DNA of 32,000 nt from NCBI RefSeq assembly GCF_000020385.1, contig NC_010814.1, positions 1,950,001-1,982,000 on the forward strand. The letters are read 5' to 3'. Position 1 is the first letter of the stretch. The number at the start of each line of letters is the position of its first letter. Under the pieces are notes generated by a model. The model had not been told where the DNA came from. It worked only from the letters and a program-made list of their open reading frames with translations, and did not search any database. This document shows positions 6,691 to 30,862 of this stretch, piece by piece. The translations under genes were made by a program, and so were the position numbers. The DNA comes from Trichlorobacter lovleyi SZ (GTDB taxonomy: Bacteria > Desulfobacterota > Desulfuromonadia > Geobacterales > Pseudopelobacteraceae).

Positions 6691-7656
6691 ATGTTTCATC
6701 GCGTACTGTTACTGCTGGTCACACTTGCCGTTTCGGGGCTGCTTTTCACGGGCTGCCGGACACAGAAAACAGAAAGTAATCAGCCTGCACGGCCGATCGT
6801 GATAACCACGCTGTTTCCTTTGTACGATTTTGCCCGTACCATCGCGGGTGACCGGATGGAGGTTCAGCTGTTGCTCCCCCCCGGTGTCGAACCGCATCAT
6901 TTTGAGCCGAAACCGGATGATCTGGCCCGCATCCACCGGGCTGCCCTGTTTGTCTATATCGGTCCCTTTATGGAGCCGTGGGCAGACAAGGTCATACAGG
7001 GGGTTGATCGCACAAAAGTCCGGGTCGTTGCGGCCGCATCCGGCGTGGCACTGTTACCTGCAGTTGCCCACACCGGTAAGGAACAGCATCACCACGACCA
7101 CGATCACGACCATCAGGCTGAAGCCTATGATCCCCATGTCTGGCTTGATTTTCCGGCTGATCAGGCCATGGTTGCCAAGATACTTGAGGCGCTGATTGCT
7201 GCAGATCCTGCCGGTGCTGAGCAGTATCGCCGCCGGGCAGCAGAGCTGACAGGGCAACTGACAGCCCTTGATGCACGCTATAAGGCCGGGCTTTCAAGCT
7301 GTGGCAGCAGGGTGCTGCTGCATGGCGGTCATGCTGCCTTTGGCTATCTTGCCAACCGCTATAATCTGAACTATCAGGCTGCAGCCGGGGTTACGGCCGA
7401 ACTGGAGGCGACTCCGCGCCGCCTGGCAGAGCTGGTGCAACAGGTGCGCAGGTACAACGTAAAGGCGATCTATTCCGAAGAACTGGTCTCTCCCCGCGTG
7501 GCACGGACCATTGCCGGAGAAACCGGTGCAACGGTGTTGAAACTGCATGGTGCCCATAACGTGGCAAAAGAGGATCTGGAGCGGGGTGTCACCTTCATCA
7601 CGCTGATGGATGAAAACCTGAAGAACCTGCAGGTTGGACTTTCATGCAGGAACTGA
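6691..7656 (+). CDS. znuA: Metal (probably zinc) ABC transporter substrate-binding lipoprotein, ZnuA/TroA family
   Basis: Signal peptide with a lipobox-like LFTGC. Cluster-9 SBP fold motifs are present ([28 protein letters not shown]). It has the acidic/His-rich loop HHHDHDHDH characteristic of ZnuA. AGGAGG lies upstream of the ATG. Confidence 0.85.
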
Positions 7657-8393
7657 TCAGGGTAGAGCAGCTTACCTGCCGTCACGGAGCGGTAGAGGCG
7701 CTGTCCGGCATCAGTTTCAGCGTGGCTGCAGGCGACTACCTGGGGATTGTAGGGCCCAATGGATCAGGGAAAAGTACTCTGGTACGGGCTTTACTGGGGT
7801 TGATGCCTTCGTATCAAGGCCGGATTTCACTCTTTGGGCAATCCCGCGAAAACTTCACGGCATGGCAGCGGCTGGGGTATCTGCCCCAGAATCTGGGACC
7901 GCTTAACCCTGCCTTTCCCGCTACGGTCTTTGAGGTGGTGCAACTGGGGTTGCTGGCTGGTAAAGGGCTGCCGCGGCGCCTTTGCCGTCAGGAACGCCAG
8001 CAGGTACAGGAGCTGCTGGAACTGCTGGGGATTGATCATCTGCAGCGCCGTATGATCGGTGAGCTGTCCGGAGGTCAGCAACAGCGGGTCATGCTGGCCC
8101 GGGCCCTGATCAATAATCCTGAGCTGTTGGTGATGGATGAGCCGACCGCTGCCCTGGACCCTGAAATCCGCGACCGTTTTTATGAACTGGTGGCCCGGAT
8201 GAACAAGAACAAAGGCACCACGGTGCTGCTGGTGACCCATGACACCGGCACCATCGGGCAGTATGCCTCAAGGATGCTGTATCTTGACAAGAAGGTGCTG
8301 TTCTTTGGGTCGTTTGATGAGTTCTGCCATTCTCCTGAGATGTCGGTTTTTTTCGGGGAGCATTCCCAGCATCTGATCTGCCACAGGCATTGA
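7644..8393 (+). CDS. znuC: Metal ABC transporter ATP-binding protein
   Basis: Walker A GPNGSGKST, signature LSGGQQQR, Walker B LLVMDEP, H-loop VTHD. It overlaps the znuA 3' end by 13 nt. Confidence 0.9.
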   Translation: MQELIRVEQLTCRHGAVEALSGISFSVAAGDYLGIVGPNGSGKSTLVRALLGLMPSYQGRISLFGQSRENFTAWQRLGYLPQNLGPLNPAFPATVFEVVQLGLLAGKGLPRRLCRQERQQVQELLELLGIDHLQRRMIGELSGGQQQRVMLARALINNPELLVMDEPTAALDPEIRDRFYELVARMNKNKGTTVLLVTHDTGTIGQYASRMLYLDKKVLFFGSFDEFCHSPEMSVFFGEHSQHLICHRH

Positions 8394-8394
8394 T

Positions 8395-9228
8395 ATGACA
8401 ATCTTTGAAATGTTTTCATACAGCTTCATGCAGCGTGCCCTGCTGGCAGGTACCCTGATCGGGGTACTCTGTGCAGTACTTGGTGTGTTTCTGGTACTGC
8501 GCCGCCTGTCGCTGATCGGTGACGGCCTGGCCCATATCACCTTTGGCAGTGTGGCCCTGGCCCTGTTTGCCGGGTTGCAGGGGGCTGCCATGCTGCTGGT
8601 GTCGCTGCCGGTGGTGTTGCTGGCATCGCTGGGGATCTTGAAGCTGGCTGGCAAGGCCCGGCTGGGCGGAGATGCCGCCATCGGGATCGTTTCATCGGTC
8701 GGGGTCTCACTGGGGGTGTTACTGGCAGTGCTGGGACGCGGCTATGGCGTTGACCTGTTCAGCTACCTGTTCGGCAGTATCCTGGCCATCAGCCGGGCAG
8801 AACTGCTGGTGGCAGGCGGCCTGTTTATCACGGTGCTGGCACTGTTGTGGCTGTACTACAATGATCTGGTGGCCTTGACCTTCAATGAGGAACTGGCAGC
8901 AGTCAGCGGCATCAGGGTCAGGTTTCTGAACGGTCTTCTGGCTGCCCTGACTGCGTTGACCGTGGTGTTGGCCATGAAACTGGTGGGGGTGATGCTGATC
9001 TCTGCGTTGCTGATCCTGCCAGCCTCGGCGGCCTTGCAGGTGGCCCGGGGATTCAGGATGACCGTGATCCTGTCGGTGCTGTTTTCTCTGCTGTCGGTTG
9101 TGGGGGGGATTGTGCTGTCGTTTCTGCTGAACCTGCCGTCGGGTGCCACCATCATCCTGTTGGCGTTTGTGATTTTCTGTGCCGGCTATCTCTTCAGGCA
9201 GCTACAAACGGTCAAAAATAGAAACTGA
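8395..9228 (+). CDS. znuB: Metal ABC transporter permease (ABC-3 family)
   Basis: 277-aa polytopic hydrophobic protein of ZnuB/MntB type. Its start lies in a TGATATG junction with the znuC stop. Confidence 0.88.
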   Translation: MTIFEMFSYSFMQRALLAGTLIGVLCAVLGVFLVLRRLSLIGDGLAHITFGSVALALFAGLQGAAMLLVSLPVVLLASLGILKLAGKARLGGDAAIGIVSSVGVSLGVLLAVLGRGYGVDLFSYLFGSILAISRAELLVAGGLFITVLALLWLYYNDLVALTFNEELAAVSGIRVRFLNGLLAALTALTVVLAMKLVGVMLISALLILPASAALQVARGFRMTVILSVLFSLLSVVGGIVLSFLLNLPSGATIILLAFVIFCAGYLFRQLQTVKNRN

Positions 9229-20276: not shown

Positions 20277-20661
20277 GCAGCCTTTTCTGCGTGATTGCTC
20301 CCTTGCCAACGGCCTGCAGGTAACGGTGGCGGATGTCTCACGTCACTACTATGGCGGCTACTGGCAGGTCTGCCTGGAGGTCAGCTGTCTGGTTTCGCTT
20401 GATCTGGGCCTGTTTTCTGAGCCGGCCATTGAGGCGGACGCCCGTCGGCTTCTGGGGACAGCGGTTCCTTTTGTGCGCCATCTGGAAAAGATGGCGGTGC
20501 ATGGTGATGAGCTGGCTGCTGTGCAACAGGAACTGCTGGAGCGGTTTGATCGCCACCTGTTGCCGTTTCTGGGCAATCAACAGTTTCCTTCCCGTTTTAT
20601 TCAGAGTGAGTTTCAAAAACGTTGCAAGAAGAGTAACCGTGGGATCCCCTGCCTGTTATGA
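20269..20661 (+). CDS. Hypothetical protein (130 aa), no recognisable domain
   Basis: ATG 20269 overlaps the creatininase stop (ATGTCTGA), and its own stop overlaps the rlmD ATG (ATGA). Translational coupling on both sides argues that it is a real gene. The sequence MSEQPFLRDCSLANGLQVTVADVSRHYYGGYWQVCLEV.. matches no family I recognise. Confidence 0.6.
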   Translation: MSEQPFLRDCSLANGLQVTVADVSRHYYGGYWQVCLEVSCLVSLDLGLFSEPAIEADARRLLGTAVPFVRHLEKMAVHGDELAAVQQELLERFDRHLLPFLGNQQFPSRFIQSEFQKRCKKSNRGIPCLL

Positions 20662-21971
20662 GTGTTGATGAGCTTGTGATTGAACGGCTGGCCCTGGGAG
20701 GCAACGGTGTCGGCAGAATTGACGGTAAGGTCTGCTTTGTGCCGTTTTCCGCTCCTGGCGACCGGCTGAAGGTACGGGTGGTACGGGAGCACCGTTCTTA
20801 CTGTGAAGCAGAACTCGTGGAGTTGTGTGAGCCATCACCGCAACGGGTTGAACCACGCTGTCCTGCCTTTGGGCGGTGCGGTGGCTGTGATTGGCAGCAT
20901 ATCAGCTACCAGGCGCAATGTGATGCCAAGCAGCAGATCCTGATTGAGACCCTGCAGCGCGTTGCCCATCTTCAGGCTCCGGCAGTTGCGTCAACAGCCG
21001 CGTCCGGGCTGGACTATGGCTACCGAGCCCGGGCCCAGTTCAAGCTGCATGCAACACCGGCGGGACTGGCGGTTGGTTTTTTTCGACGTGGCTCACGTTA
21101 TGTGATTGATCTGCCCCAGGGCTGTCCAATCTGTACCGAGCCCATTAACACCGCCATGCTGAAGCTGCGTCAGGTTATTCAGGCCGTTCCGGACCTGCAC
21201 CGCATCCCCCAGCTCAGTCTGGAGGAGGGGGCCTCCGGTGTCGTGGCGGTTGTGCATTACATCGGCAGTGACCAGCAGCGTTTGAAGCAGCTGCTTTTGC
21301 AGCACCGGGACCAGTTGGGGGTGAGCGGGCTTTTTCTGCAAATCGGCAGGAAAGAGGCACTGCAGCCGGTTTTCGGCTCCGGACATCTGACCTATCCGGT
21401 GCCGCGCTGCGATTTGTCTGCTGACGCCATGTCGCTTGGTTATGAGATCGGCGGGTTCTCGCAGGTCAATCGCCTGCAGAATCAGAAGATGGTCAAGCTG
21501 GTCTGCGGCTATGCCCAGCCTGCTGCAAGCCAGCGTATGCTGGATCTTTACTGCGGGAACGGTAACCTCTCCCTGCCGTTGTCCGGTGCCGTGCAGGAAC
21601 TGCTGGGGATTGAAGGGTTTGCCCCCTCAATTGCATCGGCAGTTGACAATGCCCGTCAACTTCGTGTAAACAATAGCACTTTCAGATGTAACGACGCCTC
21701 AAAAGAGTTGCGTCACCTGATAGCTCAACATGCCGTGTTTGATCTGGTGCTGTTGGACCCGCCCAGGGCCGGTGCTGCTGACGTTGCCCGTCAACTCGCT
21801 CAGCTTGGGGCACAGCGGATTGTGTATGTATCCTGTGATCCTGCAACGCTGGCCCGTGATCTTGCTGCGCTGTGCGGCGCTGCCGGGTACCGGCTGATTG
21901 AGGCTACTCCGCTGGATATGTTTCCCCAGACCGGCCACCTGGAAACAGTGGCCTTACTGACCCGAACCTGA
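20658..21971 (+). CDS. rlmD: RumA/RlmD-family RNA (uracil-C5)-methyltransferase with TRAM domain and Fe-S cysteines
   Basis: N-terminal TRAM-like domain (GGNGVGRIDGKVCFVPFSAPGDRLKVRV) and a Cys cluster (CPAFGRCGGCDWQH). SAM motif LDLYCGNGNLSLPL, DPPRAG, and the catalytic-Cys region YVSCDPATLARD. Confidence 0.86.
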   Translation: MSVDELVIERLALGGNGVGRIDGKVCFVPFSAPGDRLKVRVVREHRSYCEAELVELCEPSPQRVEPRCPAFGRCGGCDWQHISYQAQCDAKQQILIETLQRVAHLQAPAVASTAASGLDYGYRARAQFKLHATPAGLAVGFFRRGSRYVIDLPQGCPICTEPINTAMLKLRQVIQAVPDLHRIPQLSLEEGASGVVAVVHYIGSDQQRLKQLLLQHRDQLGVSGLFLQIGRKEALQPVFGSGHLTYPVPRCDLSADAMSLGYEIGGFSQVNRLQNQKMVKLVCGYAQPAASQRMLDLYCGNGNLSLPLSGAVQELLGIEGFAPSIASAVDNARQLRVNNSTFRCNDASKELRHLIAQHAVFDLVLLDPPRAGAADVARQLAQLGAQRIVYVSCDPATLARDLAALCGAAGYRLIEATPLDMFPQTGHLETVALLTRT

Positions 21972-22017
21972 ACAAGCTGTTTTTTCCATAGCGAATCTGC
22001 ACAACAAGGAGCGTACC

Positions 22018-22299
22018 ATGAACAAGTCTGAACTGATCGAAACCTTTGCCCTCCAACGCGAGATCTCCCACAAGCGGGCTGAAGAGGTGGTCAACATGAT
22101 CTTCAACTCCATGAGCGAGGCGATGACTGCTGGTGAGCGGATCGAGATTCGCGGTCTGGGGAGCTTTGTGGTTAAGGAGTATGGCGCCTATACCGGTCGC
22201 AATCCCAAAACCGGTGAGCCGATTGAAGTCAAACCGAAGAAGCTGCCGTTTTTCAAGGTAGGAAAAGAGCTGAAGGAGCGTATCCTGGACGGCGAGTAA
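22018..22299 (+). CDS. ihfB: Integration host factor subunit beta (HU/IHF family)
   Basis: 93 aa. MNKSELIE.., GERIEIRGLGSF, GRNPKTGEPIEV and FKVGKELKERI closely parallel E. coli IhfB. AAGGAG lies upstream of the ATG. Confidence 0.86.
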   Translation: MNKSELIETFALQREISHKRAEEVVNMIFNSMSEAMTAGERIEIRGLGSFVVKEYGAYTGRNPKTGEPIEVKPKKLPFFKVGKELKERILDGE

Positions 22300-22301
22300 G
22301 T

Positions 22302-23237
22302 ATGTCTCGTCGTATTGCAGCCATTGATTTCGGCACCAACACCGCCCGGCTTCTGATTGCCGATCTGGCTGATGACGGACAGTTTGAACAGGTGGCGCTG
22401 CAGCGAACCATTGTTCGTCTGGGAGGTGGCTTCAGCCGCGAAACCGGTCTGGCTGATGATGCCATCCAGCGTGCCCGGCTTTGCCTGCACCGGTTTGCTG
22501 ACACAATTCATAAGCATGGGGTCGGTTCGGTACGGGCTGTAGCAACCAGCGCAGTCCGTGACGCAGTCAATGGCCCGGCCTTTGTGGACCAGATGGTTCA
22601 GGAGACCGGTATCAGGCTCGGTGTGATTGATGGCCTGACAGAAGGCCGGATAGCGCTGGCCGGTGTGCTGACTGGTCTGGATCAACAACCGGAACAGGTG
22701 CTGCTGTTTGACGTAGGGGGGGGGAGTACCGAGTACACCATAGCTCGGGGCACCTGCCCCCTTTTTGTGCATAGTCTGCCTTTGGGGGTTGTGCGGCTGA
22801 CGGAGGGCAAGGCCGATCCGGCAGCCATGGCAGACAAGATCGGGCGTGAACTGGACAGCCTGCATCAACAGATGGCGCAGGCGCAGATGGCACTTTCTCC
22901 CGATACCCTGCTGGTAGGGACCGCCGGTACCGCCACAACCCTGGCTGCCATCTCGCTCGGGATGGCAGAATATGACTACCGCAAGGTCAACAACTGCATG
23001 CTGGAGCTGCAGGAAATTCAGCGCATCTATGAGCTGTTGCTGCCGCTTTCACCGGAACAGCGTCTGTCTGTTGCCGGCCTTGAAAAGGGACGTGAGGATC
23101 TGATTATTGCCGGTAGCCTGATTACCCTCCTAACACTGCAGCGTTTTGGTTTTAAATCCATGAAAGTAAGTGATTACGGGCTGCTTGAAGGTCTGGTGGT
23201 CTCAGACATTGCTTTGATTGATCAAATGCAGTCATGA
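22302..23237 (+). CDS. Ppx/GppA-family phosphatase (short, ~311 aa form)
   Basis: ASKHA-fold motifs IAAIDFGTNTARLLIA, VATSAVRDAVN and DVGGGSTE. It starts 2 nt after the ihfB stop. Confidence 0.87.
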   Translation: MSRRIAAIDFGTNTARLLIADLADDGQFEQVALQRTIVRLGGGFSRETGLADDAIQRARLCLHRFADTIHKHGVGSVRAVATSAVRDAVNGPAFVDQMVQETGIRLGVIDGLTEGRIALAGVLTGLDQQPEQVLLFDVGGGSTEYTIARGTCPLFVHSLPLGVVRLTEGKADPAAMADKIGRELDSLHQQMAQAQMALSPDTLLVGTAGTATTLAAISLGMAEYDYRKVNNCMLELQEIQRIYELLLPLSPEQRLSVAGLEKGREDLIIAGSLITLLTLQRFGFKSMKVSDYGLLEGLVVSDIALIDQMQS

Positions 23238-23303: not shown

Positions 23304-24542
23304 GTGGAGAGTAACAGCCATCTGATGGGCAGACAACCGATCCTGAACGGCCTTGAAGAGGTTGTCGGTTATGAGTTGTTGTTCCGTTCCCCCAAATCAA
23401 TTGCCACAGCAACCATTGAGTGCCCGGTTCAGGCAACCTCCCGTGTCATGTTGGATGTCATCTCCAGTTTTGGTATCCGCGAAATGCTGGGTGATCTGCC
23501 CGGCTACATCAATGTTGATGCCGAGATGCTCTTGAGCGATGCAATCCAGCTGCTGCCAAGTGATGTGATCGGTCTTGAGTTGCTTGAAGATGTTGTCATT
23601 ACGCCCGCTATTGTCGCACGTTGCCGGGATCTGAAGGCACAGGGCTATCAACTGGTCCTTGATGACCACCGTTACGGACCTCAGTATGAAGAGCTGTACG
23701 ATGGTCTGGTGGATATCATCAAGATGGACATGATCACGACCCCCCTTGATGATCAGTACCGCGAAGTTGAGCTGTTCAAGCGCTATCCGGTTAAGCTGCT
23801 GGCAGAGAAGGTTGATAGCCGCCACGTCTACCTGCGTTGCCGCAAGATGGGGTTCGAGCTGTTTCAGGGCTATTTCTTTGCCCGTCCTTCACTGGTGAAA
23901 AAGGCTCGTCTGGCCAACTCATCCAGCACTTTTTTCCAGCTGATGCAGCAGCTTTCACGTGATGCTGATATCAACGAAATCGAACAGACCTTTAAACAGA
24001 GCCCCGCCCTGACCTATAAGCTGCTCCTGCTGGTCAATTCTGTCTCCTTTTCCATCAGAGAAAAGATTCGGACCGTACGTCACGCCATTATGCAAGTGGG
24101 GAGGCAACACCTGAAGCGCTGGGTGCAACTGGCAATCTTTGCCGATGACGGTGGTTTGGGGGTACATAACCCTTTGCTGGAGATGGCTGCAGTGCGGGCT
24201 GCTTTCATGGAGGAGCTGGCCAGGCTAGAATTGAGCAAGACACGGCTGCTGCGGTATGCCCAGCCGGATGAATGTTTTATGCTGGGCACCTTGTCGGTCC
24301 TGAAAGACGTCTGTGAGATCGGCACTGATGATATGCGTAAAAACCTGAATTTGTCAGATGATCTTGTTGGCGCCCTGGTGGCCCATGAAGGGGATCTGGG
24401 TACCATGCTCTGTCTGGCAGAGATGATTGAACAGCTTGAGTTTGAAGAGGCAGAGCAGTGCCTTGGACGGTTGGGGGTCTCACCTGATCTGGTGCTTGAT
24501 TGCCAGAAAAAGGCCTACAGTTGGCGTAACAGCCTGGTCTGA
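23304..24542 (+). CDS. EAL-domain plus HDOD-domain signalling protein (COG3434-like)
   Basis: N-terminal EAL-like domain (GRQPILNGLEEVVGYELLFR, YINVD, GLELLED, LVLDDHRYG, IIKMD, LLAEKVD, FQGYFFARP). C-terminal HDOD-like domain (SPALTYKLLLLVNS..VRHAIMQVG). GTG 23304 lies 6 nt after GGGGAG; ATG 23325 is an alternative start. Confidence 0.84.
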   Translation: MESNSHLMGRQPILNGLEEVVGYELLFRSPKSIATATIECPVQATSRVMLDVISSFGIREMLGDLPGYINVDAEMLLSDAIQLLPSDVIGLELLEDVVITPAIVARCRDLKAQGYQLVLDDHRYGPQYEELYDGLVDIIKMDMITTPLDDQYREVELFKRYPVKLLAEKVDSRHVYLRCRKMGFELFQGYFFARPSLVKKARLANSSSTFFQLMQQLSRDADINEIEQTFKQSPALTYKLLLLVNSVSFSIREKIRTVRHAIMQVGRQHLKRWVQLAIFADDGGLGVHNPLLEMAAVRAAFMEELARLELSKTRLLRYAQPDECFMLGTLSVLKDVCEIGTDDMRKNLNLSDDLVGALVAHEGDLGTMLCLAEMIEQLEFEEAEQCLGRLGVSPDLVLDCQKKAYSWRNSLV

Positions 24543-24549
24543 TCCGCTG

Positions 24550-25353
24550 CTATTGTTTTGATATGACCTTGCTGTGCTCCCTGACCGTTTTAGCACGCTG
24601 CAGATAGCCCTGCTGCAGCTCTTTATTGCCTTGTAAGCCGGCCAGTTCTGCCAAGGCCTCCAGGTCCGCTGCGATCTTTGCCGAGGCCTCCTGTTGCTTG
24701 TCCAGCTTCAGTGCCTCCTGCAGCAATTCTTCTGCTTTATCAAACTGTCGTTCCTGTGCCGTGATCAATCCCAACATCCGCAGCGAGTTTGCACGCTCCA
24801 GTTCCGCGCCGTCACGCTTGTTGGCTGCTAATGCAGCTTCAGCCAGCCGCGCTGCTTCGGTTTTGTCACCTGTCATCAGGGCGATCCGGGCCAGCAGGTT
24901 CAAACGCCGCCCCTGCAGGTTACCCTGTTCTGATGTCAGAGAGATCCGTGCCCAGCGGCCGGCTTCTGCAAGGCGATTGGCTGCCAGTTCCTGCAGCGCT
25001 TTTTCCTGGGCAGCATCGGCATACTGCGAAGTGCCGCCGGCATTGGCAAGGGCCTGCTCCACCAGTTGCGCAGCCAGTTGCAACTTGCCGTCGTGACGGG
25101 CAAGTCTGCTCTGATTCAGCAGTGTCAGGCTCACGCCGTTACGATCATCCTGTGCTGAGGCGAGCCGCAGTGCCTCTTGTAACAGTTCCTGCGCGTCAGT
25201 GGCATAGCCCTTTGCAGCGCTGCCGAGAGCCCGTTCATTCAGGTCTGAAATTTTGCGTTCATGTTCGGACAGTTGCACCCTGCTGCCAAAACAACCGCTC
25301 AACAGCGCAGAGGCGGCCAGGATCAGGATCGTTTTAACGAGTGCGTTATTCAT
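24550..25353 (-). CDS. TPR-like repeat lipoprotein
   Basis: ATG 25353 overlaps the MCE gene stop (ATGAATAA). The lipoprotein signal is MNNALVKTILILAASALLSGC. The remainder is Ala/Leu/Glu-rich helical-repeat (TPR-like) sequence. The ORF-track GTG at 25362 is an alternative start. Confidence 0.75.
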   Translation of the reverse strand: MNNALVKTILILAASALLSGCFGSRVQLSEHERKISDLNERALGSAAKGYATDAQELLQEALRLASAQDDRNGVSLTLLNQSRLARHDGKLQLAAQLVEQALANAGGTSQYADAAQEKALQELAANRLAEAGRWARISLTSEQGNLQGRRLNLLARIALMTGDKTEAARLAEAALAANKRDGAELERANSLRMLGLITAQERQFDKAEELLQEALKLDKQQEASAKIAADLEALAELAGLQGNKELQQGYLQRAKTVREHSKVISKQ

Positions 25354-26302
25354 GGCTGTCACCTGCCTTGAAGGAACGGCTTGGCGCGGTTGTCGTTTCT
25401 CCTCCCAGTAACCAGGAGTTGTTCAGGCTGTTCACCAGCCGGTCGGTGCTGAACAAGAGTTCTTCAGTGCGTGACAAGACCCCGGGAATCAGAGGAAATG
25501 CCTGCTGGGACAGCTTCTTTGTCTCTGCAGAGATTGCCGCGATATTGGCCATGGCCGAATCGGTTTTTTCAAGCAACGGGGGCAGTTTTTCAAGTGCGGT
25601 ATTCAGTTTATCCACATCCAGACTGTCAATCTTGCGGGTACTGGCGTCCAGCAGTGTTGTGGTCCGGTTGCTGATCTCCTCAAGGTTGCGGGTGGTGTTT
25701 ACCAGCAGAGTGTCGGCATTGCTGCGGGTTGTCTCAAGATGTCGGGTCAGCAACTCCAGATTGCGGATGGTCTTTTTCAGATCCCCGTTGGGATCATTCA
25801 CGTAGCCGATGATATCCCGCACCTCAATCAGCACCGGCTTCACCTTTTCAGCGATTTCATCTGCCAGTTCATCCAGCCCCTTGGTCTTCAGATAGGTGAT
25901 GGATTCGCCAGGTTTAAGTTCTGGCTTGTCAAGTGAGCCCACGGCAACTTCAACAATGCTGTCACCCACCAGTCCTTCCTTGACCAGTTTGACGGTTGAA
26001 TCGCTGCGAATCCACTTACTGTATTTTTTGGCAATCTCAATTGATATCTCAACCATGGCCTGCTCATTCAAGGCCATATCAGTGATACGTCCTATTCTGA
26101 ATCCGGAGAGCTTGACCGGCATTCCCTTGGTAAATCCGGTGCCGCGGTCAACGGTCACGTTCAGGGTATATTTGGGGCTGAACAGGTCTTTCTGAACCCC
26201 TACCAACAGTACCACCAAAGCCACGCCAGCCAGGGCCAGCAGGGTAAAAAGACCGATTTTACGTTCAAGGTTTTTAAATCTGGGATCCTGTTGCGTGATC
26301 AT
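25346..26302 (-). CDS. MCE/MlaD-family protein with a long C-terminal helical extension
   Basis: N-terminal TM anchor (IGLFTLLALAGVALVVLLVGV) and an MCE domain (YTLNVTVDRGTGFTKGMPVKLSGFRIGRITDMAL..VKLVKEGLVGDSIVEV). This is followed by about 190 aa of predicted coiled/helical sequence. The ATG overlaps the upstream gene's stop (ATGA). Confidence 0.85.
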   Translation of the reverse strand: MITQQDPRFKNLERKIGLFTLLALAGVALVVLLVGVQKDLFSPKYTLNVTVDRGTGFTKGMPVKLSGFRIGRITDMALNEQAMVEISIEIAKKYSKWIRSDSTVKLVKEGLVGDSIVEVAVGSLDKPELKPGESITYLKTKGLDELADEIAEKVKPVLIEVRDIIGYVNDPNGDLKKTIRNLELLTRHLETTRSNADTLLVNTTRNLEEISNRTTTLLDASTRKIDSLDVDKLNTALEKLPPLLEKTDSAMANIAAISAETKKLSQQAFPLIPGVLSRTEELLFSTDRLVNSLNNSWLLGGETTTAPSRSFKAGDSHE

Positions 26303-26970
26303 GTCTGCCTCGTAATCTGTGGCGGATTATATCTCAGGTCACAGGTAATATCCGGTACCAGCAGCGGTAACTGAATATCTCCTGTGGTAATGAAGAGTGC
26401 TGTCGGAGCATCAGTCTGATTTTGTAATGCCATGGCCTGCTGCAGAAGCAGATCCCGCTGCGGGCTTGGGAGGTCGTCAAGGCATTCAGCATACACCATC
26501 AGGCGTGGTGATGACACCGCGGCACGGACAAAAGCGGTTATGATTCGCTCCGTATAGCTGAGATGACCGGGTAACGCCCAGATGTTACCTCTGTAGCCAA
26601 GCTTTTCAAGTAGCAACAGGGCCTGCTCTGCTGCTGTGTCAGATACTGCGCCATGGTGGTACAGCAGGGGCAGGGTGATATTCTCCCAGACCTTCAGGTT
26701 GGAGATCAGGCCTGCCTGTGCTGTGACGGTGCTGATAGTTCTGCGAACTCTGAGCAGTTGCTCGCGATCCAGTTCATGTAGCGGCAGTTCATCCAGCAGC
26801 ACTGAACCGGTTTCAGGTCGTGCTTCTCCGATCACTACCTGAAGCAGCTGTTTGGTCTCCTGCTCCCCTGCTGTCTTGCACAGAATCACCTGTCCCTGCT
26901 GAAGGCTCAGGTTCAGGTGACTGGCTACACCTGGAATGGTAAGATCTCTCAGTTCAAGAAGTACCGGCAT
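26299..26970 (-). CDS. ABC-ATPase-like protein with degenerate nucleotide-binding motifs (probable pseudo-ATPase)
   Basis: 223 aa with MlaF-like overall layout (LELRDLTI.., a Q-loop-like TAQAG, NLKVWENITLPL). However, the Walker A position reads ILCKTAGEQETKQLL with no GK[ST]. The signature reads LSYTE instead of LSGGQ, Walker B reads LMVYAEC instead of hhhhDEP, and the H-loop reads ITTGD. Alignment was done by eye. Confidence 0.72.
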   Translation of the reverse strand: MPVLLELRDLTIPGVASHLNLSLQQGQVILCKTAGEQETKQLLQVVIGEARPETGSVLLDELPLHELDREQLLRVRRTISTVTAQAGLISNLKVWENITLPLLYHHGAVSDTAAEQALLLLEKLGYRGNIWALPGHLSYTERIITAFVRAAVSSPRLMVYAECLDDLPSPQRDLLLQQAMALQNQTDAPTALFITTGDIQLPLLVPDITCDLRYNPPQITRQT

Positions 26971-27110
26971 GACAAAAAACAGGCTCCTGTTTTGCTGCGG
27001 GTTGTTTGCTTGCCATAAATCTGGCTCGATTGACTACATACCACAAACTGCCCCGCTTCACAAAGCGTGAAGATTCGCCCATTTGAGGATATGAAACAAG
27101 AGTAAACGAA

Positions 27111-27140
27111 TTGACAATACCGTGTATCAACGTGTATAAA
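27111..27140 (+). promoter_or_regulatory. Candidate sigma70-type promoter for the iorA operon (TTGACA-18 nt-TATAAA)
   Basis: Consensus -35 TTGACA at 27111-27116 and TATAAA at 27135-27140, in an AT-rich 218-nt divergent intergenic region about 49 nt upstream of the iorA ATG. The direct repeat CGTGTAT (27121-27127, 27131-27137) occupies the spacer and the -10 element. Confidence 0.4.
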
Positions 27141-27188
27141 TTAGCCCTTTAATTCTATTTTATATGTCGTAAAGTGAGATGAACCCCT

Positions 27189-28964
27189 ATGAAAGAAATT
27201 CTATCCGGCAACGAGGCCATTGCACGGGGCGCCTATGAGGCTGGTTGCCTGGTGGCCAGTGCCTATCCCGGTACCCCTTCCACTGAAATCCTTGAAAATG
27301 TAATCAACTACAAAGAGATTAACGCCTCGTGGGCACCCAATGAAAAGGTGGCTCTTGAGGTTGCGATTGGCGCCTCGTTTGGCGGTGCCCGTGCCCTGGC
27401 CTGTATGAAGCACGTCGGGGTCAACGTAGCAGCTGATCCGCTGTTTACCGCCTCTTACACAGGTGTTAAGGGTGGATTGGTGCTGGTGGCTGCCGACGAC
27501 CCGGAGATGCATTCCTCCCAGGATGAGCAGGACAGCCGCAACTATGCCCGTTTTGCCAAGGTGCCGATGCTGGAGCCGGCTGACTCTCAGGAGTGTCTGG
27601 CTTTTACACGTCTGGCTTTTGATCTGTCCGAACAGTTTGATACCCCGGTCATGTTGCGTAGCTGTACCCGTATCTCCCACGGCAAGTCGGTGGTTGAGCT
27701 GGGTGAACGCCGCAATGACCTGCCTGCCCCCAAGCTGGTCAAGGATGCTCCCAAGCTGGTGATGTTGCCGGGTAATGCCCGGGTCCGTCATCCACTGGTT
27801 GAAGAGCGCTCGGTCAAGCTGTCGGAATATGGTGATAAGGCTGCCGTCAACCGGATGGAGATCCGCTCGGCCGAGATCGGGGTGATCTGTGCCGGCGTGA
27901 CCTACCAGTATGTGCGGGAGGCGTTGCCTGATGCCAGCGTACTCAAGCTGGGCATGGTCTGGCCCTTGCCCCACAACCTGATCCGAGAGTTCAGCAGCAA
28001 GGTCAAGCAGCTGTATGTAGTTGAAGAACTTGATCCGTTTATTGAGGATCAGGTCAAGGCTATGGGAATCAGCTGCCAGGGCAAGGGGCTGACTTCGCTT
28101 TGTGGTGAGCTTTCACCGGGCCGGATCCGCGATGTCTTTGCCAAGGCCGGTATCATTCCTGCGGTTGCTGCTGAGGCTGCTGCGGTTGAACCGGTGCCGC
28201 CCCGTCCGCCTAACATGTGTCCCGGCTGCCCGCACCGTGGTCTGTTCTATGAGCTGAACCGGGCCAACGCCTATGTAACCGGTGATATCGGCTGCTACAC
28301 CCTGGGCTTTATGCCGCCGCTGAATGCCATGGACACCTGTGTCTGTATGGGGGCCTCCATCAGTATGGGCTCCGGCATGGTACGGGTACTGCCTCCTGAA
28401 GAACAGAAGCGCGTGGTTGCGGTGATCGGTGATTCCACTTTCCTGCACACCGGTGTCAACTCCCTGATGGAGATGGCCTGGAACAAGGCGCCAGCCACGG
28501 TAATCATCCTGGATAACCGGATTACTGCCATGACCGGACGTCAGGAAAACCCGGCCTCCGGATTTACCCTGTCCGGCGAGCAGGCTGAAGAGGTAAATAT
28601 TCCTGAGCTTTGCAAGGCGCTGGGGATCAAGCATGTGCGTACCGTAGATCCCTATGATCTGGATGCAACCCGTCAGGCAATCCGCGAGGAGATGGAGCGC
28701 CCTGAACCATCGGTGGTCATCACCAATCGCCCCTGTGTGCTGATCAAGGGGGCTGGCCGCTTTGAAAAAGGTACCATCCTTGAAGTTGATCAGGGTAAGT
28801 GTACCGGCTGCAAGGCCTGTCTGCGGATCGGATGCCCGGCCATTGAGTGGAAACCCAGCCCGGACGGCAACAAGGGCAAGGCCTTTATTGACCCGCAGCT
28901 CTGTACCGGTTGTACGGTCTGTCAGCAGCTCTGTAAATTCAATGCCATCGGGGGGAGAAAGTAA
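27189..28964 (+). CDS. iorA: Indolepyruvate:ferredoxin oxidoreductase subunit alpha
   Basis: 591 aa. IorA-type N-terminus (MKEILSGNEAIARGAYEAG..AYPGTPSTEI), TPP-binding region (GDIGCYTLG, IGDSTFLHTG), and a C-terminal 2x[4Fe-4S] ferredoxin motif (CTGCKACLRIGCP, CTGCTVCQQLC). Confidence 0.92.
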   Translation: MKEILSGNEAIARGAYEAGCLVASAYPGTPSTEILENVINYKEINASWAPNEKVALEVAIGASFGGARALACMKHVGVNVAADPLFTASYTGVKGGLVLVAADDPEMHSSQDEQDSRNYARFAKVPMLEPADSQECLAFTRLAFDLSEQFDTPVMLRSCTRISHGKSVVELGERRNDLPAPKLVKDAPKLVMLPGNARVRHPLVEERSVKLSEYGDKAAVNRMEIRSAEIGVICAGVTYQYVREALPDASVLKLGMVWPLPHNLIREFSSKVKQLYVVEELDPFIEDQVKAMGISCQGKGLTSLCGELSPGRIRDVFAKAGIIPAVAAEAAAVEPVPPRPPNMCPGCPHRGLFYELNRANAYVTGDIGCYTLGFMPPLNAMDTCVCMGASISMGSGMVRVLPPEEQKRVVAVIGDSTFLHTGVNSLMEMAWNKAPATVIILDNRITAMTGRQENPASGFTLSGEQAEEVNIPELCKALGIKHVRTVDPYDLDATRQAIREEMERPEPSVVITNRPCVLIKGAGRFEKGTILEVDQGKCTGCKACLRIGCPAIEWKPSPDGNKGKAFIDPQLCTGCTVCQQLCKFNAIGGRK

Positions 28965-29542
28965 TGGATAACGCAATCACCAACATCCTCCTGGTGGGGG
29001 TAGGCGGGCAGGGGATTCTGCTCGCTTCGGAGATTTTGTCAGAGGCGTTCATGCTGGCAGGTTTTGATGTCAAGAAGAGCGAGATTCACGGCATGTCCCA
29101 GCGGGGCGGCAGCGTGGTCTCCCATGTCCGTTTCGGTAAAGAGGTTTTCTCTCCAGTGGTGCCTGAAGGGCAGGGGGATATTCTGTTCGGTTTTGAACTG
29201 CTGGAAACCTATCGCTATCTGTCGCTGCTCAAGCCGGGTGCCACGGTGGTGGCCAATGATTACAAGATAGCCCCTCCTTCAGTACTGCTGGGGCAGGCGG
29301 TTTACCCTCAGGCATTACCTGAAAAAATAAAGGCCAAGTTCCCTGATTTCCTGCTGGTTGATGGCCAGGGGCTGGCGCTGCAGGCCGGTGATGTGCGGGC
29401 TGCCAACACTGTCATGCTGGGTGCGGTTTCCAAACGTCTGCAGATTGCTGAGGAGGTCTGGCAAAAGGCCCTGGAAAAGATGGTGCCAAAAAGGGCGCTG
29501 GAGATCAACCTGAAGGCCTTTGCCATGGGCCGGGAACTCTAG
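28964..29542 (+). CDS. iorB: Indolepyruvate:ferredoxin oxidoreductase subunit beta
   Basis: 192 aa with the gamma-type OFOR domain (ILLVGVGGQGILLASEIL, HGMSQRGGSV). TAATG junction with iorA. Confidence 0.9.
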   Translation: MDNAITNILLVGVGGQGILLASEILSEAFMLAGFDVKKSEIHGMSQRGGSVVSHVRFGKEVFSPVVPEGQGDILFGFELLETYRYLSLLKPGATVVANDYKIAPPSVLLGQAVYPQALPEKIKAKFPDFLLVDGQGLALQAGDVRAANTVMLGAVSKRLQIAEEVWQKALEKMVPKRALEINLKAFAMGREL

Positions 29543-29554
29543 GAGGTCGTACGC

Positions 29555-30862
29555 GTGGCCAACTATTTCAATGAAGAGTTTGAAACCCTGCCCCGTGCAG
29601 CCCTGGAGGCGCTTCAACTGAAACGTCTACAGGCAACGGTTGCTCGGGTATATGCTAACGTGCCGTTTTATAAACAGTCCTTTGATGCTGCCGGTATCAA
29701 GCCTGAAGACATCAGGAGCCTGACTGACCTGCAGCGTCTGCCCTTTACCACCAAGCAGAATATGCGTGACTCTTATCCCTATGGTCTGTTTGCAGCCCCC
29801 ATGGAAGAGATTGTCAGGATTCATGCTTCATCCGGCACCACCGGCAAACCAACGGTGGTGGGCTACACCCAGAAGGATATTGAGACCTGGTCTGAGCTGA
29901 TGGCCCGTTCCTTTATGGCTGCCGGCGCCCACAAGGGGGACATCATCCACAATGCCTATGGGTATGGCCTGTTTACCGGCGGTCTGGGGGCCCACTACGG
30001 TGCTGAAAAACTGGGTGCGTCGGTTATTCCGATCTCCGGCGGCAATACCAAGCGTCAGATCATGATCATGCAGGATTTCGGCTCCACCGTGCTGACCTGT
30101 ACCCCGTCCTATTCGCTCTATCTGGCTGAAGAAGCCGCTGCAGAAGGGGTGGATATCAAATCTTCAAAGTTGCGGGTTGGTATCTTTGGTGCCGAGCCCT
30201 GGTCTGAGGCGATGCGGGGCGAGATTGAGGCCAATCTTGGTCTGGATGCGATTGACATTTACGGCCTGTCAGAGATCATGGGGCCCGGGGTGGCGATTGA
30301 GTGCATCGAAGAGAAGCATGGCCTGCATATCTGGGAAGATCATTTTATCCCTGAGATCATCAACCCTGAGACCGGCCAGCCGGTGGCTGAAGGGGAAAAG
30401 GGTGAGCTGGTCATCACCACCATCACCAAGCAGGGAATTCCGCTGATTCGTTACCGTACCCGCGATATCACCAGCATCAGTTACGCCCCCTGCGCCTGCG
30501 GCCGAACCCATGGCCGGATTGCCCGGATGAGTGGCCGTTCCGATGATATGCTGATCATCCGCGGCGTGAATGTGTTCCCGTCCCAGATCGAGTCTATTCT
30601 GGTAAGGATTGAAGGGGTTGAGCCCCACTATCTGCTGATTGTTGATCGCAAGGATAACCTGGATACCCTTGAGGTACAGGTTGAGGTGGATGAACGGATC
30701 TTCTCTGATGAAATCAAGGTGTTGCAGACCCTTGCCCGGCGGATTGAGAAAGAGATCAAGGATATGCTTGGGGTCACCTGTACCGTCAAGCTGGTGGAGC
30801 CCAAGACTATCCAACGTAGTGAAGGTAAGGCGCAGCGTGTGCGCGATAATCGGAAACTGTAG
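29555..30862 (+). CDS. paaK: Phenylacetate-CoA ligase
   Basis: 435 aa. PaaK-type N-terminus ([25 protein letters not shown]), AMP-binding motif [19 protein letters not shown], and a C-terminal K in the EGKAQRV region. The start codon is GTG 29555. Confidence 0.9.

Follow-up and report, generated by a model that had tools for sequence, protein, structure and literature searches.

The DNA analysed here, referred to as the window, is a 32-kb stretch of the Trichlorobacter lovleyi SZ genome, and the system in question is a group of three minus-strand genes within it (the trio), encoding a degenerate ATP-binding cassette (ABC) nucleotide-binding domain (NBD) protein, a protein with an MCE domain and a lipoprotein with tetratricopeptide repeats (TPR). 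The parts of the trio are as follows (window coordinates; aa, amino acids; ORF, open reading frame; TM, transmembrane):

26299..26970, minus strand: pseudo-NBD gene, 223-aa ORF with an MlaF-like ABC nucleotide-binding fold
25346..26302, minus strand: MCE gene, 318-aa ORF with PF02470, a TM helix and a helical needle region
24550..25353, minus strand: TPR lipoprotein gene, 267 aa from ATG, with TPR repeats and the lipobox LLSG-C21
25349..25420, minus strand: C-terminal tail of the MCE protein, aa 295-318, with an invariant W297 and the end GDSHE-COOH; a candidate docking peptide

The pseudo-NBD and MCE genes overlap by 4 nt (ATGA, 26299-26302), and the MCE and TPR genes by 8 nt (ATGAATAA, 25346-25353). 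The mechanical ORF list extends the start of the TPR ORF to a GTG at 25362; the public gene calls use the ATG. A first-pass annotation of this DNA, made from the letters alone, had described the three genes as a coupled operon. The overlaps are as it gave them, and the cassette is kept in 70 loci.

An MlaF-like fold without catalytic motifs

The pseudo-NBD gives a weak match to the ABC_tran family PF00005 (32.5 bits), though one above the 25-bit cut-off, and its nearest solved relatives are MlaF chains (E 9e-14 with phmmer and a single sequence, 5e-23 with the family profile). The AlphaFold2 (AF2) model of the protein has a predicted local distance difference test (pLDDT) value of 90.5 and a predicted template modelling score of 0.88. 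A Foldseek search with this model placed MlaF of E. coli and P. aeruginosa at the top (TM-score 0.78-0.81, about 20% identity), with LolD and MetN also at about 0.8. As modelled, the protein has the NBD fold, with a RecA-like and a helical subdomain.

The motifs were aligned to A. baumannii MlaF with phmmer, with the family profile and with MAFFT, the profile alignment being gap-free through the P-loop. They compare as follows:

Walker A: GPSGTGKT in MlaF, TAGEQETK in the window protein
Q-loop: Gln in MlaF, Ala in the window protein
Signature: LSGGM in MlaF, LSYTE in the window protein
Walker B: LIMYDEP in MlaF, LMVYAEC in the window protein, the Asp being gone
H-loop: His in MlaF; the window protein is without His in aa 180-223 (expected after the strand 190-196)

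The loss of every catalytic NBD motif, as claimed in the first-pass annotation, is thus borne out by alignment to MlaF, which recovered no intact motif. The Walker B Glu is kept in the window protein and is not conserved in the family. The protein is also shorter than MlaF (223 aa vs 269 aa). Its most conserved part, in every lineage, follows the Q-loop: the stretch GLISNLKVWENITLPLLYH (aa 87-105) is nearly invariant across phyla, with the pattern G-L-I-S-N-L-K-V-W-E-N-I-x-L-P, of which NLK[VL]WENI is invariant. In ABC structures, the region after the Q-loop is where NBDs grip the coupling helix of the permease.

Judged from the homologous sequences, the loss of motifs is a family trait and not a local accident. 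Among 5.8 billion proteins, 62 homologues of about 223 aa were found, and all 21 that were aligned show the same losses; the motif table comprises 26 members. The Walker A pattern G-x4-G-K-[ST] is missing in all 70 loci. A profile search of 1.84 billion cluster representatives (50% clusters) returned 104 at E <= 1e-30, and 132 of the 150 best representatives lack the same pattern. Two short members, P0361 and P0450, have an intact Walker A (GPHGSGKST and GATGSGKST, respectively) together with the family hallmark ALISNLKVIENVALPILYH; being without signature, catalytic Glu and H-loop, they look like intermediates that would bind ATP without hydrolysing it. Members whose genes are linked to a gene for the permease MlaE (see below) keep the Walker B Asp, but Ser replaces the catalytic Glu, and a Lys is usually found at the Walker A position, in an acidic conserved motif T-x-S-[DE]-x-E-K. 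The Geobacterales members are more decayed than these, the Walker B Asp and the Walker A Lys being lost too. The Walker A intermediates, the MlaE-linked members and the Geobacterales members would therefore form a series of steps, the first able to bind ATP without hydrolysing it and the last unable to bind it.

Relaxed selection acting specifically on the NBD after a split of the operon was considered and rejected. The NBD/MCE divergence ratios of three groups (2.28, 1.76 and 1.14) are higher in Geobacterales, and the TPR/MCE ratios (2.16, 1.76 and 1.21) rise equally with them.

The MCE protein and its needle

In the MCE protein, the PF02470 MlaD match (aa 44-120) lies behind one N-terminal TM helix. 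The protein consists of a cytoplasmic N-terminus, the TM helix, a beta-barrel (aa 44-137), helices (143-168, 174-227, 244-268 and 276-294) and a disordered tail. The first-pass annotation had given its helical tail about 190 aa; the helical character stands, but the length does not, since about 180 aa follow the MCE domain, of which about 130 are predicted to be helical.

Using the MCE family profile, the PDB chain 13hr_I, a 312-aa 'Mce/MlaD domain-containing protein' which from its length and name we take to be P. aeruginosa PA3213, was matched over aa 44-277 (E 3.7e-17), and Mce1B (8fed_B) over aa 15-266 (E 2e-13). The AF2 monomer has a pLDDT of 68, and such a moderate value is expected for an obligate hexamer. 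In Foldseek, the monomer found Mce1B first, over its full length, and MlaD next, over the barrel only. Profile and fold comparison thus agree on a protein of the needle type. PF28544 (listed as Helical_needle) is a precomputed match for many homologues; the window protein gives no match to it at E <= 0.1. Within Geobacterales, identity to the window protein ranges from 55 to 93%.

PA3213 (312 aa) yields a periplasm-spanning subcomplex of about 230 A (PMC13631591), and the Brucella protein MpcD (331 aa) was modelled at a length of about 250 A (PMC12436622). Because the 318-aa MCE protein is homologous to both and of similar length, it should span the periplasm.

It was also observed that D6, R8 and F9 (D-P-R-F, window 26276-26287, minus strand), located in the cytoplasmic part before the TM helix, are invariant in 27/27 aligned MCE proteins across phyla, and that E. 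coli MlaD has no equivalent of D-P-R-F. The partner of this motif could be the pseudo-NBD or MlaE.

The C-terminal tail and the TPR lipoprotein

Across phyla, the MCE proteins end in ...W-[LP]-[LI]-(about 15 residues)-[GV]-D-S-[HY]-[DE]. The broader pattern [DNG][ST][HYFND][DE] forms the exact C-terminus in 61/68 family members and lies within the last 20 residues in 63/68. In the window protein, the conserved residues of the alignment are D315 and S316.

The product of the third gene matches TPR_12, TPR_2 and TPR_MalT and has a signal peptide with the lipobox MNNALVKTILILAASALLSGC, so the earlier description of it as a TPR lipoprotein holds. The lipobox C21 is followed by F-G-S, with no Asp at +2. 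At least three or four TPR-like repeats are present, and the only PDB sequence match is a designed TPR. No match to a PqiC-type or MlaA family was obtained at E <= 0.1 in Pfam and NCBIfam, where only TPR families were hit. All 26 aligned lipoproteins have the lipobox Cys; E186, R192, D218 and R253 are invariant, while N80, N152 and N189 are nearly so. Such a pattern of Asn, Arg and Lys residues is typical of TPR domains clamping acidic C-terminal peptides.

One complete locus, L052 of the Nitrospirota, has MlaE, dead NBD and MCE genes (MCE at L052:4584-5546) and no downstream TPR gene. Its MCE protein ends in ...HLEQKNGE, without DS[HY][DE], and a 553-aa lipoprotein gene converges on the cassette instead. 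A precedent for docking of the tail exists in PA3213, whose last seven residues bind a groove of its PqiC-like lipoprotein (PMC13631591). Given the conserved tail, its loss in L052 and this precedent, we propose that the TPR lipoprotein, without being homologous to PqiC, has taken its place and holds the tip of the needle; the conserved MCE tail is probably captured by it.

Distribution of the cassette and its MlaE permease

The loci were collected from one genome per GTDB species, which gave 79 loci. NBD-like and MCE genes stand side by side in 70 of them, a single MCE gene being present in every locus, and the TPR gene comes next in 66 of these 70 by tblastn; a further one, in L073, encodes a divergent lipoprotein not picked up by tblastn. 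Host taxa comprise Geobacterales (Trichlorobacter, uncultured 'Geobacter' and Pelobacter), Nitrospirota/Thermodesulfovibrionales, Syntrophorhabdales, Muproteobacteria, Sulfurifustaceae, Betaproteobacteria and one Luteolibacter (Verrucomicrobium). The cassette occurs in five phyla or more, and its family comprises over 100 clusters (50% identity). Between the window and T. thiogenes, the NBD is 78% and the MCE protein 92% identical.

Outside Geobacterales, a PF02405 MlaE gene overlaps the start of the NBD gene in 34/35 loci with enough upstream sequence. This MlaE has 254-262 aa, about six hydrophobic segments and PF02405 E-values of 1e-47 to 1e-58. L071, a betaproteobacterial locus, has its MlaE not upstream but about 3.6 kb past the TPR gene, on the downstream side. 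The ancestral unit was therefore composed of MlaE, dead NBD, needle-type MCE protein and TPR lipoprotein, and the NBD is dead also where MlaE sits in the same operon. Within Geobacterales, MlaE is adjacent in 0/28 loci.

In the window, no MlaE, YrbE or PqiA was found among the 26 long ORFs scanned with Pfam, tblastn with cassette MlaE queries gave zero matches across the whole 32 kb, and there are no MlaC or MlaA genes; the sole other ABC system is ZnuABC (6691-9228). The statement that the trio has no permease is hence correct for the window and incorrect for the system, since MlaE is adjacent in nearly all non-Geobacterales loci and occurs as an orphan in sister Geobacterales (see below). 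The absence of a permease gene is a matter of lineage-specific gene order and not a property of the system.

Genes flanking the cassettes were also scanned with Pfam, which revealed neither a STAS match nor a PqiA-like gene. Two further candidates were rejected. An active ATPase hidden in the cassette was sought among the 250-290-aa Nitrospirota genes upstream of MlaE, which proved to encode Crp-type regulators, DUF4384 proteins, BioW and HAD hydrolases. Apparent MlaE-NBD fusions in L061 and L082 are artefacts of long ORFs: that of L061 has a weak ABC_tran match only, its MlaE tblastn match being in another frame, and that of L082 has no Pfam match.

Several other genes recur close to the cassettes. 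DUF4384 proteins are encoded directly upstream of some of them (L071:4148-5758 and L047:4361-5209), one being fused to a caspase-like Peptidase_C14. In Nitrospirota, genes of Crp-type regulators binding cyclic nucleotide monophosphates (cNMP) are divergent from MlaE, about 50-170 nt upstream (L039, L040, L044, L046, L053 and L066), and BrkB plus cNMP-binding proteins occur at L041:3085-4287 and L045:3078-4280.

An unlinked MlaE gene in Geobacterales

In the Geobacterales locus L029, a lone MlaE gene was found on the strand opposite to the trio, at a distance of 4.7 kb. Its product is 50.6% identical to the cassette MlaE of L068 and reaches only 60-75 bits with canonical MlaE chains. Among the matches listed, homologues of this orphan have 61-74% identity and, where named, belong to Desulfuromonadales or Geobacter. 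On 7/8 contigs the context is the same: a PDEase_II-like metallo-beta-lactamase gene, MlaE, FBPase, a small ORF and a response regulator-HD gene (L090 is without FBPase). No NBD or MCE gene was found near the orphan MlaE on the eight contigs examined.

The orphan MlaE P0091 and the trio locus L028 are on the same 696-kb contig of Geobacter sp. L1geo, about 270 kb apart, and the orphan P0139 is in the same metagenome-assembled genome as the trio locus L030. In total, at least three trio-bearing genomes have an orphan MlaE elsewhere; the contig accessions of three others (P0088, P0110 and P0130) match no trio-bearing assembly. In a neighbour-joining tree of MlaE, the orphans nest inside the cassette clade, far from MlaE of E. 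coli, P. aeruginosa and A. baumannii. All these trio-bearing genomes belong to the Geobacterales branch whose MCE protein has about 313-326 aa.

From these sequence relationships, the cassette MlaE appears to have been moved and not lost in at least one Geobacterales branch. An MlaE partner elsewhere in the genome, named in the first-pass annotation as the finding that would reduce the trio to a split canonical Mla system, is therefore present in the sister lineages; for the Trichlorobacter clade, the window's own genome included, it was neither found nor excluded. That the system is merely a split canonical Mla does not follow, because the NBD is dead even beside MlaE, the MCE protein is of the needle type, and the lipoprotein is a TPR protein and neither MlaA nor PqiC. 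An MlaE gene near the trio in Trichlorobacter was considered and rejected: the genes upstream in L038 encode a sensor protein and an IPP transferase, and the flanks in T. ammonificans are without MlaE.

Around the orphan loci L085-L094, MlaE always stands behind the PDEase_II/metallo-beta-lactamase gene. In L085 and L088/L089, a gene for a CHASE2 guanylate/adenylate cyclase is present 1-2.5 kb upstream.

Genomic neighbourhood of the trio

The trio is bounded, as had been described, by a divergent intergenic region on one side and a convergent gene on the other:

26971..27188, no strand: divergent intergenic region, 218 nt between the trio and iorA; presumed promoter and 5' untranslated region

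The Rfam scan gave no family anywhere in the window, including any riboswitch or other RNA in this 218-nt leader, and a consensus promoter scan found no sigma-70-like site within 26971-27188, the region-wide counts of promoters and terminators being at the level of shuffled sequence. The divergent gene past the gap is iorA, encoding the alpha subunit of indolepyruvate:ferredoxin oxidoreductase (TIGR03336, 723 bits). It is followed by iorB and a PaaK-like ligase gene (all three within 27189-30862, plus strand); in relatives, at positions that would be past the window's end, genes for an ACT protein and for branched-chain ABC uptake come next. In T. ammonificans (OW150024.1, L095:7380-9160), iorA is called as two ORFs (249 + 357 aa) vs one 591-aa gene in the window, which could be due to misassembly, to a frameshift or to a genuine split of the gene.

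On the other side, the convergent EAL-HDOD gene (23304-24542, plus strand, 412 aa) ends at 24542, 7 nt from the third ORF of the trio; of the 236 positions of the EAL model, its match takes in only 104-236, the C-terminal half. L001-L004 share this neighbour; in L019 the strand opposite to the trio carries an EAL-HDOD gene upstream of it, and in L005 a Ppx-GppA gene occupies the position after the trio. Genes for Ppx/GppA, HU and a TRAM methyltransferase (20658-23237, plus strand) are found further along this side of the window. The synteny around the trio, kept through much of Geobacterales, is probably conserved gene order without functional meaning for the trio.

Comparison with known MCE systems

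The closest likeness is to PA3211-PA3214 of P. aeruginosa (MlaE-like, MlaF-like, PA3213 and the PqiC-like PA3214; PMC13631591). The order permease-NBD-MCE-lipoprotein is that of the cassette outside Geobacterales, of which the window has the last three genes only, and both systems have an MCE protein of about 315 aa with one MCE domain followed by a helical needle, for which about 150-190 aa were taken as typical of the class. In PA3211-PA3214 the C-terminal MCE peptide docks on the outer-membrane lipoprotein (PMC13631591); here such docking is proposed. The differences are that the NBD of the cassette is without catalytic motifs, that its lipoprotein is a TPR and not a PqiC/DUF330 protein, that the tail is an acidic DS[HY][DE], and that the Geobacterales cassettes have no linked permease gene. 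The 'Mla-Pqi chimeric' system MpcEFDA of Brucella abortus, a proposed bridge between the inner and outer membranes needed under envelope stress, likewise has an MlaE-like and an MlaF-like protein, the long MlaD-like MpcD and a lipoprotein as the product of the last gene (PMC12436622). However, MpcF is described as an ABC ATPase homologous to MlaF, MpcE has an N-terminal STAS domain and MpcA is homologous to PqiC, none of which was seen here.

The other systems are more distant. Mycobacterial Mce1 (YrbE1A/B, MceG and Mce1A-F; 8fed) shares the MCE domain with a long helical needle in each subunit, Mce1B matches lengthwise, and mceG sets a precedent for a component whose gene is remote from the MCE genes, but Mce1 is a heterohexamer of six paralogues with an active ATPase, has no TPR lipoprotein and belongs to a different envelope type; the MCE protein scores 52 bits with TIGR00996 vs a 140.5-bit cut-off. 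MlaFEDB of E. coli and A. baumannii provides, in MlaF and MlaD, the closest solved relatives of the NBD and of the MCE domain, and its MlaE represents the family of the cassette permease. There, however, the NBD is an active ATPase, MlaF, extended at its C-terminus and partnered by MlaB, whereas the NBD here is dead, and MlaD is short (183 aa) and needle-less, transfer proceeding via soluble MlaC and outer-membrane MlaA without a bridge; the MCE protein reaches 60 bits with TIGR04430 vs a 135-bit cut-off. PqiABC and LetAB are trans-periplasmic MCE tunnels without an ABC ATPase, and the PqiB needle has a C-terminal peptide bound by PqiC. They differ in their PqiA/LetA partners, neither of which occurs here, in having proteins with multiple MCE domains (one here) and in having no NBD-like subunit, and the NCBIfam PqiB model (NF008070) gives 19 bits vs a 525-bit cut-off.

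The trio system is thus built like the class of PA3211-14, Mpc and Mce1, but two features that define this class, a PqiC-like lipoprotein and a competent ATPase, are missing from it, as are most features of canonical Mla, Pqi/Let and actinobacterial Mce. A full-text literature search turned up neither a characterised family matching the trio nor any publication on dead MlaF-like subunits or TPR lipoproteins in MCE systems, in line with the earlier suggestion of an uncharacterised system. A phylogenomic paper on the Mla system of Veillonella mentions neither a degenerate NBD nor a TPR partner.

Proposed assembly and alternatives

In the best reading of these data, the three genes specify the conserved core of a trans-envelope MCE system with four components, of the same class as PA3211-PA3214, Brucella MpcEFDA and Mce1. 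Its gene content and conservation, the loss of motifs, the folds, the linkage of MlaE (in cis in other phyla, in trans in sister Geobacterales) and the tail are direct observations. For the physical contacts, the stoichiometry, the location of the lipoprotein, the cargo and the missing energisation, we infer the arrangement that follows.

We think it probable, on balance, that three elements build a tunnel for hydrophobic molecules: in the inner membrane an MlaE dimer with two dead NBDs, in the periplasm an MCE6 ring with its needle, and on the outer membrane the TPR lipoproteins. Hydrolysis of ATP in the tunnel's own NBD would not drive it. The MlaE-type permease dimer would be encoded immediately upstream in most phyla and by an orphan gene behind the class-II phosphodiesterase-like gene in Geobacterales. 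The pseudo-NBD would sit on the cytoplasmic face of the permease via the conserved groove region following the Q-loop, as a structural or regulatory cap and not as a motor, hydrolysing no ATP and, in the lineage of the window, probably not binding it either. Six copies of the MCE protein would form the ring and an alpha-helical needle across the periplasm, and the acidic C-terminal peptide of the needle (...W...GDS[HY][DE]) would be held by the outer-membrane TPR lipoprotein, in place of PqiC-like lipoproteins. Hydrophobic cargo, most likely lipid, would pass this tunnel without ATP hydrolysis by the system's own NBD, in an equilibrative manner or otherwise driven.

Several points weigh against this assembly. 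The word 'passive' is an argument from absence, as an active MlaF-type ATPase encoded elsewhere or the proton-motive force, acting via another partner, may supply energy. The length of the needle rests on homology, because the model of the MCE monomer is only moderately confident. The L052 control is one locus, and strict recognition of the C-terminal carboxylate cannot be universal, because 5-17 residues follow DS[HY][DE] in six loci (L059, L061, L066, L067, L071 and L072), proteobacterial members among them. The MlaE tree was built by neighbour-joining without support values and contains three canonical MlaE, none from Geobacterales. Finally, the Trichlorobacter clade has no MlaE within +/-6-10 kb of the trio (L006-L024, L038 and the complete T. 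ammonificans genome).

The last point touches a bridge without any permease, as read in the first-pass annotation, which we consider unlikely. In the Trichlorobacter clade, MlaE would have been lost after leaving the operon, and the MCE hexamer with its own TM helices, the pseudo-NBD docked on D-P-R-F and the TPR lipoprotein would be a self-sufficient passive bridge. Beyond the absence of MlaE from the window and these flanks, none of the 120 orphan MlaE matches listed was traced to long Trichlorobacter-clade contigs; however, these matches reach down to 61% identity, and a more divergent Trichlorobacter MlaE would fall outside. The stronger decay of the NBD motifs in Geobacterales than in MlaE-linked cassettes, the coupling of the Geobacterales NBD gene to the MCE gene and not to MlaE, and the invariant D-x-R-F would all suit such a bridge, but the sister Geobacterales branch retains an orphan cassette-type MlaE, and all MCE systems known so far have an integral partner in the inner membrane (PMC13631591). 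The stretch that aligns with the post-Q-loop region of MlaF is invariant in the Trichlorobacter clade too, which, together with the lack of NBD-specific relaxation of constraint, would favour retention of a partner there. That the locus is a degenerating Mla-like remnant without current function seems highly improbable. All catalytic motifs and, in Geobacterales, the adjacent permease gene are indeed lost, but conservation contradicts this: the ORFs are intact and their overlaps conserved in 70 loci of at least five phyla, MCE proteins of Geobacterales are 55-93% identical to that of the window, 104 cluster representatives reach E <= 1e-30, invariant motifs occur in all three proteins, and the NBD model is confident and well folded.

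Two alternatives retain MlaE and assign the dead NBD a different role. In one, rather unlikely in our judgement, energy is borrowed: an active MlaF-type ATPase encoded elsewhere pairs with a pseudo-NBD on the MlaE dimer, or the two take turns there, and transport is ATP-driven. The ATPase of Mce1 is MlaF-like (chains G and H of 8fed), its gene mceG stands apart from the mce operons, and MceG is reported to serve several mce loci. ABC transporters also commonly pair two different NBDs of which one has a degenerate site; the intact Walker A of P0361 and P0450 also indicates that nucleotide binding was retained for some time. Yet the pseudo-NBD is without both Walker A and signature, and therefore both composite sites of such a heterodimer would be crippled; moreover, no active NBD gene lies in or next to about 35 MlaE-containing cassettes, and the MlaE homodimer of the MlaFEDB structures has two identical NBD docking sites. 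In the other, which we regard as quite unlikely, the dead NBD is a ligand- or partner-controlled gate of the MlaE/MCE conduit, possibly under cyclic-nucleotide control. Genes of cyclic-nucleotide signalling (Crp-type, BrkB + cNMP-binding, PDEase_II-like and CHASE2 cyclase) recur in the neighbourhoods, in two phyla, the former P-loop of MlaE-linked members is a conserved, non-random acidic T-x-S-[DE]-x-E-K, and intermediates with Walker A and without catalytic residues exist. However, this is association only, in Geobacterales and Nitrospirota genomes that are rich in such signalling genes; a Crp-type regulator accounts for transcriptional control without any role of the NBD, and the P-loop-derived motif is not conserved in the clade of the window. 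The idea raised in the first-pass annotation, that energisation may be absent or replaced, is the part of this sequence-based reading that is of interest.

Implications for MCE systems

MCE systems are the main candidates for transport of phospholipids and other hydrophobic molecules across the Gram-negative envelope, and their energisation and direction are still argued. Tentatively, and with more doubt than confidence, we suggest that there are widespread MlaE-type 'ABC' envelope transporters with a wholly non-catalytic NBD subunit, which would provide ATP-free intermembrane transport or a regulated gate (possibly cNMP-controlled), and in which a TPR lipoprotein clamping the acidic C-terminal DS[HY][DE] of the MCE needle would represent a novel class of receptor at the outer membrane. 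If true, this would be, to our knowledge, the first ABC-transporter architecture shown to dispense with ATP hydrolysis altogether. Besides the known type of lipoprotein partner at the outer membrane, there would also be an unrelated one (TPR) that recognises a simple docking peptide, and the operon would be an example of splitting in which the dead NBD gene remained beside the MCE gene when the permease gene relocated. The host organisms are environmental anaerobes, and therefore the impact would be on mechanism and not on medicine. As MlaE and the NBD fold are kept while the ATP motifs are dismantled, with Walker A intermediates, the family is a natural experiment on what the ABC module does beyond hydrolysis, be it scaffold, gate or nothing. 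If the system is functional, an MlaE/MCE bridge can work without its own ATPase, which would bear on the models of Mla, PA3211-14/Mpc and Mce1.

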